DNA of 64,000 bases from Escherichia phage KKE7M, in sequence record PQ356295.1. The stretch is one strand, 5' to 3'. Positions 20,441-22,949 of the stretch are shown here, one piece after another; the first letter of the stretch is position 1, and every line of letters starts with the position of its first letter. Below the pieces are notes generated by a model. The model ran no database searches. It was not told the origin of the DNA and saw only the letters and a program-made list of their open reading frames with translations. Both the position numbers and the translations under genes were made by a program.

Positions 20441-20523
20441 TGGCAGCAAGGTGAGGAATCGAACCCCTTGATCTATGGTTTGGAGCCATATTGAGTACCA
20501 TACTCTTTTAAATCTACCCAGCT
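20441..20523 (-). tRNA. tRNA-like, anticodon CCA (Trp), atypical D region
   Basis: clean anticodon arm TATGG-CTCCAAA-CCATA and T-loop TTCGATT, but 26 nt between acceptor and anticodon stem and imperfect acceptor pairing. Confidence 0.35.
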
Positions 20524-21304: not shown

Positions 21305-21634
21305 TTATTTTAAAATAGTAGATGCACCACGTCTGTTTAGATATGCAACAGTAAAGTCCAAATCACCTATTTCTTCAGGTTCCCACTGACCTTCTAAGCC
21401 ATAGCAAGAACAATGATATGCGTGTACTTCATAAAACAGAGATGTTTTCATATCATAAAAATAAACGTGAGATTCACCTTCATAATATGCACAGTCATAA
21501 GTGGCAGAAAGAATTACAATGTTATCCTTATCTAACTCTACTTCATAATATCTTTCAACATCTTCGATATCATCAAAACCATCGAAAACATTGATGTTAA
21601 AATATTTCTCTAACTCTTTTTCTGTCACATACAC
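21305..21634 (-). CDS. hypothetical protein embedded in tRNA cluster
   Basis: 109 aa acidic ORF with AAAGGAG RBS (GTG start likely); no recognisable domain. Confidence 0.45.
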   Translation of the reverse strand: MYVTEKELEKYFNINVFDGFDDIEDVERYYEVELDKDNIVILSATYDCAYYEGESHVYFYDMKTSLFYEVHAYHCSCYGLEGQWEPEEIGDLDFTVAYLNRRGASTILK

Positions 21635-21651
21635 TCCTTTAGAGTTAAAAT

Positions 21652-21726
21652 TGGTGCTCCCACAAGGACTCGAACCCTGATAAGTTGCTTACAAGGCAAC
21701 CGTAATAGCCGTTATACGATAGGAGC
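21652..21726 (-). tRNA. tRNA-Thr (UGU)
   Basis: acceptor GCTCCTA/TGGGAGC, anticodon arm GTTGC-CTTGTAA-GCAAC, T-loop TTCGAGT, CCA encoded. Confidence 0.6.
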
Positions 21727-21732
21727 AATACT

Positions 21733-21809
21733 TGGACTCGACAGGATTCGATACCTGCAATTCCAGAAGCCTATTGGCGACTGGGGGTTTACCTTAACTC
21801 TACAAGTCC
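21733..21809 (-). tRNA. tRNA-like element without a canonical anticodon arm (possible pseudo-tRNA)
   Basis: 7 bp acceptor GGACTTG/CGAGTCC and T-arm with 8 nt loop TATCGAAT, but the 44 nt core does not fold into D and anticodon arms. Confidence 0.3.
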
Positions 21810-21816
21810 ATAATTC

Positions 21817-21901
21817 TGGCGATGGATCAAGGATTTGAACCTTGCTAGAACTTTCGTTCACGGATTAACAGTCCGTCGCCCAACCACTAGGCCAATCCAT
21901 C
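21817..21901 (-). tRNA. tRNA with anticodon GUU (Asn) but class II-like 15 nt variable arm
   Basis: perfect acceptor GATGGAT/ATCCATC, anticodon arm ACGGA-CTGTTAA-TCCGT, variable arm GAACGAAAGTTCTAG, T-loop TTCAAAT, CCA encoded. Confidence 0.5.
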
Positions 21902-21908
21902 TTTAATT

Positions 21909-21995
21909 TGGTGCAGGTAGTTGGACTCGAACCAACGAAGCCCCGAAGGGCAAGAGATTTACAGTCTCCAGCAATTGCCGCTATGCGATACCTAC
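21909..21995 (-). tRNA. tRNA-Tyr (GUA)
   Basis: class II fold, anticodon loop CTGTAAA, long variable arm with GCCC/GGGC stem, T-loop TTCGAGT, CCA encoded. Confidence 0.6.
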
Positions 21996-22000
21996 GTGTT

Positions 22001-22075
22001 TGGTACATCGTGAAGGATTCGAACCTTCGCTCCCTTGATTAAAAGTCAAGTGCCTTACCGCTTGGCTAACGATGC
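22001..22075 (-). tRNA. tRNA-Lys (UUU)
   Basis: acceptor GCATCGT/ACGATGT, anticodon arm CTTGA-CTTTTAA-TCAAG, T-loop TTCGAAT, CCA encoded. Confidence 0.65.
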
Positions 22076-22435
22076 ATACTCTTTACACCACCGTGTATGT
22101 CCAGCATAAGCCTTTGTACTATGGAATACTGCTCCGCAAACACACACCGTGGTTCTAATTCTGTTTCCCATGTCTTGGGAAATTCTTGTCTTCTTCATGT
22201 GACAAGCATGACACAAAAGTTGACATTTGGCAAGTTCTTCTTGCCATTTAGCCTCCGAACATGAACTCATTCGACTAATATAAAACTTCTTCTCGCTTGA
22301 ATCTTTATGATCAAATTCCAAGTCATCTACAGACCCACAATTAACACATTTACCTCCAAGCTGGAGGATTGCGGAAGCTCTTCGCTTCTGCCACCGAGTT
22401 TTCATGTATTCCCGCATATAATCATTACTTGGCAT
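22055..22435 (-). CDS. HNH homing endonuclease
   Basis: CVNCGS...EFDHKD...LLCHACH motif set; AGGAGG RBS; 3' end overlaps first 21 nt of tRNA-Lys. Confidence 0.7.
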   Translation of the reverse strand: MPSNDYMREYMKTRWQKRRASAILQLGGKCVNCGSVDDLEFDHKDSSEKKFYISRMSSCSEAKWQEELAKCQLLCHACHMKKTRISQDMGNRIRTTVCVCGAVFHSTKAYAGHTRWCKEYASLAKR

Positions 22436-22867: not shown

Positions 22868-22949
22868 TGGCCGGGGTGACAGGATTCGAACCTGCATACT
22901 CCAATTACTCGGTTAACGCCTGATTAGAAGTCAGGTGAGATACACCCCG
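22868..22949 (-). tRNA. tRNA-like, anticodon UCU (Arg), apparently lacking a D arm
   Basis: perfect acceptor CGGGGTG/CACCCCG and canonical T-arm, but only 7 nt between acceptor and anticodon stem (CCTGA-CTTCTAA-TCAGG) and 23 nt before the T-arm. Confidence 0.4.

Follow-up and report, generated by a model that had tools for sequence, protein, structure and literature searches.

A tRNA gene that joins the asparagine anticodon GUU to a long, paired variable arm lies at positions 21817-21901, on the minus strand, of a 64,000-nucleotide (nt) stretch of DNA from Escherichia phage KKE7M (PQ356295.1; this whole stretch is referred to as the window), which belongs to a phi92-like Escherichia phage (Justusliebigvirus, Stephanstirmvirinae). 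By textbook account, a long variable arm is confined in bacteria to tRNAs for Leu, Ser, Tyr and selenocysteine (Sec), and the original prediction, made from the letters of the window, had correctly regarded such arms as normal only for Leu, Ser and Tyr in bacteria. The long arm on this tRNA-Asn is real, conserved and unexplained, and in hundreds of well-studied coliphage genomes the gene is annotated only as plain tRNA-Asn. The best overall explanation, to which a probability of roughly 45% is assigned, is a working asparagine tRNA whose arm serves the evasion of nucleases. Taken separately, the working tRNA-Asn is accepted with considerable confidence, while a defensive role of the arm, inferred to act through shape, is put forward tentatively.

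A tRNA-Asn that fits neither structural class

An 85-nt tRNA-Asn(gtt) was called by ARAGORN at exactly 21817-21901 (minus strand; GAUGGAUUGGCCUAGUGGUUGGGCGACGGACUGUUAAUCCGUGAACGAAAGUUCUAGCAAGGUUCAAAUCCUUGAUCCAUCGCCA). The Rfam tRNA model RF00005 scored the same segment at 56.5 bits (gathering score, 29; E = 1e-10) in a full-length alignment (model positions 1-71), in which 12 nt appear as an insertion in the variable region, and the minimum free energy (MFE) fold is a cloverleaf plus a fifth hairpin, GAAC-GAAA-GUUC (-29.5 kcal/mol, z = -2.57). These three independent methods concur. The original prediction could have failed through another fold or anticodon, or through an error in its reverse-complement register; neither emerged from ARAGORN, Rfam or MFE folding, and the register is right.

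Direct reading of the minus strand showed every segment to have been assigned correctly, from the perfect 7-base-pair (bp) acceptor stem (GAUGGAU/AUCCAUC) through canonical D, anticodon and T arms. U8, G9 and the D arm GCCU-AGUGGUU-GGGC occupy 21878-21894, with a U13-G22 wobble and a 7-nt D loop. G26 separates this arm from the anticodon arm ACGGA-CUGUUAA-UCCGU at 21860-21876, whose anticodon GUU (tRNA positions 34-36) lies at 21867-21869; both assignments are supported by sequence, ARAGORN and Rfam. The variable arm (GAACGAAAGUUCUAG; 15 nt, 21845-21859), defined by fold and covariation, begins at position 44 and consists of a 4-bp stem (GAAC/GUUC), a GAAA tetraloop and a 3-nt tail, UAG. It is followed by the T arm CAAGG-UUCAAAU-CCUUG, and the discriminator base G73 (21820) and an encoded CCA (21817-21819) complete the gene. 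The features that characterize RF00005 tRNAs are all present: a 7-bp acceptor stem, a D arm, a 5-bp anticodon stem with a 7-nt loop (U33 and a purine at 37) and a 5-bp T stem. The 15-nt arm with its GAAC/GTTC stem in a tRNA-Asn(GUU), as first predicted, was thereby borne out by ARAGORN, RF00005 and the MFE fold alike, and 21817-21901 is a real phage tRNA with a GUU anticodon and a long variable arm.

The gene departs from each of the two structural classes in a defining feature. Where class I tRNAs have a variable loop of 4-5 nt (4-6 nt in short viral tRNA-Asn, nearly all of them 4-5), it has a 15-nt hairpin. The paired variable arm of more than about 10 nt that marks class II is present (15 nt, 4 bp, covarying), but the anticodon is GUU and not one for Ser, Leu or Tyr. 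Thus the short variable loop expected of tRNA-Asn is missing, and so are the Ser, Leu or Tyr anticodon and the acceptor elements expected of class II.

Distribution, conservation and possible origin of the long form

The original prediction had treated this tRNA as a one-off oddity; it is instead a member of a large, conserved phage family. With the 85-nt tRNA of the window as query, BLAST matched 154 phage records (61 with an identity of at least 90%); with a T5-like long form it matched 695, of which 274 reached that level. The comparison with related phages that had been proposed as a check therefore yielded the same long-arm tRNA-Asn in at least 335 GenBank phage records, which fall into four phage groups, in addition to many IMG/VR contigs. 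Long forms of 82-86 nt were read in Klebsiella Stephanstirmvirinae, in Phapecoctavirus (phAPEC8, ESCO13) and in Seunavirus (PVP-SE1), as well as in the Demerecviridae Tequintavirus Lindwurm, Novosibvirus Stubb and Priunavirus PSTCR5. Among T4-like phages, an 85-nt copy is annotated in CC31, and equally long matches came from additional T4-like records. A search of the full-text literature, including papers on PARIS, OLD, retrons and tRNA identity, yielded no account of a tRNA-Asn with a long arm; older subscription-journal papers on T5 tRNAs lay outside this search.

Uncultured viruses carry the form as well. A pattern in which the anticodon loop, G44, the GAAA loop, its closing C and GGUUC were fixed, while the stem bases of the arm and the anticodon stem were free, gave 38 matches in IMG/VR. 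All 38 were called tRNA-Asn by ARAGORN and had a paired stem in the long arm, with great diversity among them in the acceptor, D, T and anticodon stems. When the anticodon arm and G44 were fixed instead and the variable region was left free, 99 further viral tRNA-Asn were found, of which 82 measure 74-77 nt and 17 measure 79-87 nt; the latter carry hairpins of 2-5 bp with GAAA, UUCG, UUAG and other loops. A host-like anticodon stem, considered as a general trait of long forms, was rejected, as 11 further long forms, obtained when that stem was left free, have many different stems.

The variant is apparently restricted to phages. BLAST of the tRNA-Asn gave no match in 5,426 complete E. coli genomes and none in 72,556 PLSDB plasmids, and on these grounds a copied host gene was rejected. 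Among the 120 matches listed for the arm pattern in species-representative cellular genomes there was no tRNA-Asn with a long arm. Two of these matches fall on unrelated tRNAs and the others outside any tRNA gene, which fits the roughly 280 chance matches estimated. Separately, four 146-kb GenBank records labelled 'Campylobacter phage' (MG065639, MG065645, MG065656 and MG065689) resemble phi92-like coliphages. Those among them that were listed in the tRNA-only search have a tRNA-Asn 100% identical to that of the window, and all four match a 479-nt segment of the cluster at 90%; their host label may be wrong or may reflect contamination.

Conservation of the arm was assessed in 27 distinct homologues, each with a 15-nt variable region, which were aligned and their pairs counted. 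The outer G44-C pair and the loop had been fixed by the search patterns and carry no weight; the three inner pairs had been free. The extra helix is paired in 99.1% of cells, and three of its four pairs have changed on both sides, with three to five pair types each (AU/UA/GC; UA/GC/CG/AU/UG; CG/AU/UA/UG/GC). This covariation is on par with that of the acceptor, D, anticodon and T helices, and the covariation score of the whole structure is 0.78, against 0.06-0.14 in slid controls. Because compensatory changes occur at three of the four pairs among 27 distinct sequences, the arm helix is, as judged from the alignment, under purifying selection, and its retention lies far beyond chance.

The arm is accompanied by a core that resembles that of class II tRNAs. 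In a subset of viral tRNA-Asn drawn from one pattern, and hence of the same ascertainment, 16 long and 67 short forms were compared. G9 was found in 10 of 16 long but 2 of 67 short forms, G13-A22 in 7 of 16 but 0 of 67, and a D loop of 7 nt or less in 9 of 16 against 14 of 67, whereas G73 is alike in both (16 of 16 and 65 of 67). The tRNA of the window has G9 and U13-G22. When the sequences are compared, E. coli tRNA-Ser and tRNA-Leu also combine G9 with a 13-22 pair that is not Watson-Crick, and a core with G9, a wobble or mismatch at 13-22 and a short D loop is therefore best described, at the level of sequence, as class II-like.

The origin of the form was addressed by comparing tRNA bodies with the anticodon arm and variable arm masked. 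Long forms with G1-C72, which include the lineage of the window, are on average nearest to viral tRNA-Ser(GCU) (0.685, versus 0.641 to short tRNA-Asn), while those with U1-A72 are nearest to short tRNA-Asn (0.654); for short tRNA-Asn themselves, the best match was another tRNA-Asn in 64 of 72 cases. The best body matches of the window copy are tRNA-Gln (0.69) and tRNA-Ser(GCU) (0.66). A recent duplicate of the adjacent tRNA-Tyr (GUA to GUU) was rejected, tRNA-Tyr being among the least similar bodies (0.55 identity). The signal is weak, yet it suggests two independent routes to a long-arm tRNA-Asn, with an Asn-like U1-A72 group and a Ser-like G1-C72 group probably having arisen independently. 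Since one transition turns GCU into GUU, and G73 is already part of tRNA-Ser, a single mutation could give a class II tRNA with the full set of asparagine determinants.

Charging and possible function of the arm

E. coli asparaginyl-tRNA synthetase (AsnRS) recognizes G34, U35, U36 and G73 (Li, Pelka and Schulman 1993, reviewed in PMC9976931), and moving these four bases into tRNA-Lys confers asparagine identity (PMC9976931). The full set is present in the tRNA of the window, and G73 occurs in 41 of 42 long-arm homologues; charging with asparagine by host AsnRS is thus very likely, as far as determinants in the sequence can tell. LeuRS needs A73, TyrRS needs A73 and U35, and G73 is an antideterminant for both (PMC9976931). 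As the window tRNA has G73 in place of the A73 of tRNA-Tyr and tRNA-Leu, charging with Tyr or Leu would be unlikely. The codons AAU and AAC are used at 52 per 1,000 in the phage versus 42 in an E. coli sample, making up about 5% of phage codons. Should AsnRS indeed charge the long-arm form, this would show the extent to which a class IIb synthetase tolerates a class II body and would offer a natural scaffold for tRNA engineering.

The proposed role of the arm starts from the fate of the host isoacceptor, as two Toprim defence nucleases are documented to cut E. coli tRNA-Asn(GUU), though as a secondary target (PMC12409363, PMC12445682). AriB of the PARIS system cleaves this tRNA after position 40, within U36AAUC↓C41; in an AlphaFold 3 model, an active site of AriB lies at 40-41 and its second monomer sits on U16-U17 of the D loop, and co-expression of T5 tRNA-Lys, tRNA-Thr and tRNA-Asn rescues cells and phages from AriB (PMC12409363). 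OLD of P2 acts on paired CNG motifs (28-30 and 40-42), cleaving behind their first C; northern blots traced OLD cleavage of four E. coli tRNAs, among them tRNA-Asn, whose cleavage kinetics were compared with those of tRNA-Thr(UGU) (PMC12445682). The tRNA of the window keeps U36AAUC↓C41 and C28GG/C40CG, identical to E. coli tRNA-Asn, so that the substitutions at the cut site by which other phage tRNAs resist nucleases are absent. It differs from the nuclease target by the arm from position 44, 4 nt downstream of C40, and by a shortened D loop.

A mechanism can be proposed in which a functional elongator tRNA of a phi92-like phage would be charged with asparagine by host AsnRS, reading GUU and G73, and would decode AAC and AAU. 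A short stable hairpin (2-5 bp, usually 4 bp with GAAA) replaces the usual variable loop of 4-5 nt, and the core has adapted to it as in class II tRNAs. The hairpin would reshape the face at which the 3' strand of the anticodon stem enters the variable region. Nucleases cutting after C40 (PARIS AriB, P2 OLD or relatives) would then be kept from fitting, and the tRNA would still be accepted by AsnRS, EF-Tu and the ribosome. In its widest form, the proposal holds that a class II-shaped tRNA-Asn evolved at least twice, through insertion of a hairpin and probably through a GCU-to-GUU shift in a tRNA-Ser, with the arm as armour against Toprim-type nucleases cutting after C40, a shape-based counter-defence distinct from escape by point mutation; so much taken together is doubtful. 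Such armour may extend to long-arm tRNA-Thr(UGU) and tRNA-Lys(UUU) in viral contigs. Protection against anticodon-stem nucleases by an arm would be a new principle in the tRNA arms race between phages and bacteria, and would aid in forecasting which therapeutic phages withstand systems of the PARIS or OLD type.

Comparison with T5 and with neighbouring genes is relevant here. In its Cys-Asn-Asp slot, T5 has a 78-nt class I tRNA-Asn with a mutated, mismatched anticodon stem (GCAUC-UUGUUAA-GUUGA), and it is to this class I form that the published rescue data refer (PMC12409363). This allele is found in about 135 records, versus about 274 with the T5-like long allele, and from their sequences the two look like alternative solutions to one problem. 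The 5' end of the T5 gene (NC_005859, 33952-34029; 9953-10030 of locus L055) is overlapped by the open reading frame (ORF) T5.069, which in a relative is annotated as a T5orf172-domain protein, and in other T5-like phages the long-arm allele lies directly after tRNA-Cys, in the same slot. The swap of alleles in this slot therefore suggests replacement of a cassette linked to a mobile ORF. In the window itself, tRNA-Thr(UGU) lacks UAAU and both CNG motifs, and tRNA-Lys has C16, a base that impaired AriB cleavage of E. coli tRNA-Lys (PMC12409363). These neighbours look, by sequence, hardened through substitution.

Several points weigh against a defensive arm. No experiment on any long-arm tRNA-Asn was found in the literature, and resistance to AriB or OLD is purely inferred. 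Class IIb synthetases approach the tRNA from the side of the variable loop (compare the AspRS-tRNA complex), and compatibility of the arm with AsnRS is assumed. Long forms with many different anticodon stems occur in uncultured viruses whose hosts are unknown, and because of this variety the arm is not tied to one nuclease motif. The high use of AAU and AAC explains the carriage of a tRNA-Asn without any defence, an account that leaves the arm unexplained. Furthermore, Bas34, a T5-like phage with its own tRNA-Asn, still needed T5 tRNA-Asn in trans against PARIS (PMC12409363). Its own copy, which may be of either form, is perhaps cleaved, as the authors allowed (PMC12409363).

If no defence is involved, the hairpin could act as a structural stabilizer, rigidifying the core such that a rapidly made and under-modified tRNA folds without the variable-loop modifications and base triples of the host. 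The loops are overwhelmingly of stable types (GAAA, UUCG); where left free they are not fixed (GAAA, GAGA, UUCG, UUAG, UAAC and others), and stem lengths of 2-5 bp suit a generic strut more than a specific binding site. The co-adapted core points the same way. A general aid to folding, however, would be expected beyond the few isoacceptors that have the arm (0 among 104 Met, 104 Arg, 86 Gly and 56 Asp unique viral sequences), and most viral tRNA-Asn do without it (82 of 99 in the scan with a free variable region). On balance, a purely structural role is unlikely.

An improbable alternative is that the arm is a handle for a phage or host protein, such as a processing or modification enzyme, or that the tRNA soaks up a defence nuclease as a competitive inhibitor. 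GNRA loops often serve in docking. The gene is always followed by a conserved tRNA-like RNA, and the full nuclease recognition sequence is kept in the window tRNA, as it would be in a decoy; in the AriB study, competitive inhibition is suggested as a possible action of some viral tRNAs when overexpressed (PMC12409363). Opposed to this are a loop sequence that varies where left free and the lack of any identified candidate partner protein, and for a decoy the strict retention of GUU and G73 would be needless.

Slightly less probable still is a neutral relic, in which the arm was left from an insertion or from a tRNA-Ser ancestor, was tolerated as AsnRS leaves this region untouched, and spread by cassette transfer. 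The existence of two body types (G1-C72 and U1-A72) is in keeping with this, as is the location of phage tRNA genes among homing-endonuclease genes able to move cassettes. Yet the compensatory changes seen among the 27 distinct homologues, which affect all but one of the four pairs, speak for purifying selection, and the co-adapted core together with the probable independent origins favours repeated selection over drift.

Compared with the nuclease-evasion proposal, least credence is given to wrong or dual charging, in which a class II-like body with G73 would make the tRNA a substrate of seryl-tRNA synthetase (SerRS), alone or beside AsnRS, and AAY codons would partly be read as Ser. SerRS is the one real ambiguity in the identity of this tRNA, because it disregards the anticodon and relies mainly on the long arm and tertiary shape (PMC9976931), and some charging with Ser may occur. 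Hence the original claim of ambiguous charging holds for SerRS and not for TyrRS or LeuRS, which G73 opposes, and GUU with G73 points to AsnRS. Resemblance to tRNA-Ser is considerable: the phage's own tRNA-Ser(GCU) has a variable region of equal size (15 nt, 4 bp, GAAA loop), its anticodon is one base change away, the G1-C72 bodies are slightly nearer to viral tRNA-Ser(GCU) than to short tRNA-Asn, and T5-like and T4-like copies retain both G1-C72 and G2-C71, which are invariant in E. coli tRNA-Ser (PMC9976931). The window copy, however, has G1-C72 but A2-U71, and pair 2-71 varies across the 27 homologues (AU 11, GC 9, CG 6, UA 1), with the C2-G71 of six of them being an anti-SerRS element in tRNA-Leu (PMC9976931). 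Its 7-nt D loop is without 20a and 20b, and the foot of its arm has 0 (5') and 3 (3') unpaired bases, versus 1 and 2 in the phage tRNA-Ser(GCU). Position 20b reportedly has a role in setting the orientation of the arm in tRNA-Ser, as described by Biou et al. in 1994. Substantial serylation would be highly damaging since AAY accounts for about 5% of phage codons, yet the design has been kept in hundreds of virulent phages, and this alternative is very improbable; were SerRS to charge the tRNA as well, it would be a case of natural ambiguous decoding in a virus.

The tRNA cluster and comparison with known systems

The gene and its neighbours (21652-22075) are part of a minus-strand cluster with 15 tRNAs called by ARAGORN. 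The order on that strand is tRNA-Lys(UUU) (22001-22075), tRNA-Tyr(GUA) (21909-21995), tRNA-Asn, a 90-nt tRNA-like spacer (21727-21816) and tRNA-Thr(UGU) (21652-21726), the three neighbouring tRNAs being supported by both ARAGORN and the GenBank annotation of an identical record. The 701 bases around the gene (21600-22300) are 100% identical to Escherichia phage EC_OE_11, a phi92-like Justusliebigvirus, and in the 100%-identical record OQ108497.1, as in other records, the gene is labelled simply tRNA-Asn. Strong consensus-like promoter sites were predicted from sequence upstream of the gene on the minus strand, for example at 22848-22819.

The spacer at 21727-21816 (minus) has a tRNA-like fold (z = -2.97) and is a homologue of the T5 element 'rna3, putative tRNA-like RNA'. 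The same element is also found 3' of tRNA-Asn in T5 (class I allele) and in Lindwurm and phAPEC8 (long allele), from which it follows that tRNA-Asn and the tRNA-like element form a travelling module. In the identical GenBank record, the coding sequence of a putative homing endonuclease (about 22055-22435, minus) shares 21 nt with the 5' end of tRNA-Lys, an arrangement typical where mobile endonuclease genes lie within the tRNA clusters of phages.

Two further tRNA-like segments were noted on the minus strand. At 22871-22949, an unannotated gene scored 38.6 bits with the Rfam tRNA model and was not called by ARAGORN. It has a 7-bp acceptor stem, a 7-nt linker in place of the D arm, a normal T arm, a discriminator G, an anticodon arm CCUGA-CUUCUAA-UCAGG with anticodon UCU (Arg, AGA) and a 23-nt variable region with a hairpin CCGA-GUAA-UUGG. 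Its 3' half resembles T5 tRNA-Arg. Matches covering at least 80% of the query were found in 232 phage records, some of which annotate 'tRNA-OTHER'; Felixounavirus and 143-kb Klebsiella phages are among those matched over the full length, at 82-100% identity. Between tRNA-Ile and tRNA-Met, 20444-20504 gave a sub-threshold Rfam tRNA match (22.9 bits, E = 0.18) and may be a decayed remnant.

Long arms are also seen on other viral isoacceptors in IMG/VR clusters, in a sample chosen around tRNA-Asn genes, such that the Asn fraction is inflated and frequencies are rough. Hairpin variable arms were present in 4 of 65 tRNA-Thr(UGU), 2 of 51 tRNA-Lys(UUU), 3 of 37 tRNA-Cys(GCA), 3 of 45 tRNA-Trp(CCA) and 2 of 55 tRNA-Glu(UUC), and in none of the Arg, Gly, Met, Val, His, Asp or Gln tRNAs of the sampled clusters. 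Thr(UGU) and Lys(UUU) are the other two main targets of AriB. Among 20 distinct viral tRNA-Ile(UAU) (loci L176-L288), 14 have variable arms of 21-27 nt with a recurring motif, AGAUAA or AGAUUAG, and A73 in all 14; they recall the nematode nev-tRNA-Ile(UAU), which is charged with Leu, and could mean recoding of AUA or new recognition by IleRS. In Salmonella phage PVP-SE1, an 86-nt gene annotated as tRNA-Lys (248-333 of locus L004) is given a four-base anticodon by ARAGORN; read by eye, its anticodon arm is that of a tRNA-Lys (UCCGA-CUUUUAA-UCGGA), and about 10 extra nt separate this arm from the D arm.

Set against E. coli asnT, the tRNA of the window shares the GUU anticodon, the loop CUGUUAA, the anticodon stem except position 27 (A for G), G73, 7/5 acceptor and T stems and a UUCRAnU T loop. 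It differs in its 15-nt hairpin versus the 5-nt AUGUC, in G1-C72 versus U1-A72, in G9 versus A9, in U13-G22 versus C13-G22 and in a D loop of 7 versus 8 nt. With bacterial class II tRNAs (Ser, Leu, Tyr), the long-arm family shares a paired arm of 11-16 nt and, in many members, G9 with a non-Watson-Crick 13-22 pair; G73, as well as the size and loop of the arm, are in common with tRNA-Ser, arm size and loop matching those of the phage's own tRNA-Ser(GCU). Unlike class II tRNAs, it has a class I anticodon, no A73 (Leu, Tyr), no conserved G2-C71 (Ser), a short D loop without 20a and 20b and another arm foot.

Three other systems invite comparison. The allo-tRNAs (PMC5389517) are likewise non-canonical, with a long variable arm and an unexpected anticodon, and some are phage-borne; they have 8/4 or 9/3 acceptor and T stems, and membership of the window tRNA-Asn, with 7/5, was rejected. 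The closest parallel to a class I anticodon with a long arm comes from nematodes, whose nev-tRNA has a class II-type arm and a class I anticodon conserved in one biological group and is reportedly charged with Leu in vitro and poorly expressed (PMC3333845, PMC4300185). Unlike nev-tRNA, the phage tRNA has the full asparagine set and no A73, is expected to be correctly charged, and occurs in phages of bacteria instead of animals.

The nearest functional precedent, by analogy, would be the substitution-hardened phage tRNAs that escape tRNases, namely T5 tRNA-Lys, tRNA-Thr and tRNA-Asn against PARIS AriB (PMC11464382, PMC12409363), tRNA-Thr against P2 OLD (PMC12445682) and T5 tRNA-Tyr against retron Eco7 (PMC11555353). 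Like these, the long-arm tRNA-Asn is a phage copy of an isoacceptor cut by host immunity, and it is clustered with the known targets Lys(UUU), Thr(UGU) and Tyr(GUA). They escape through bases substituted in or close to the cut site, or through an anticodon stem that has become shorter, whereas the tRNA of the window, known from sequence alone, combines the cut-site sequence of the host with an added arm.

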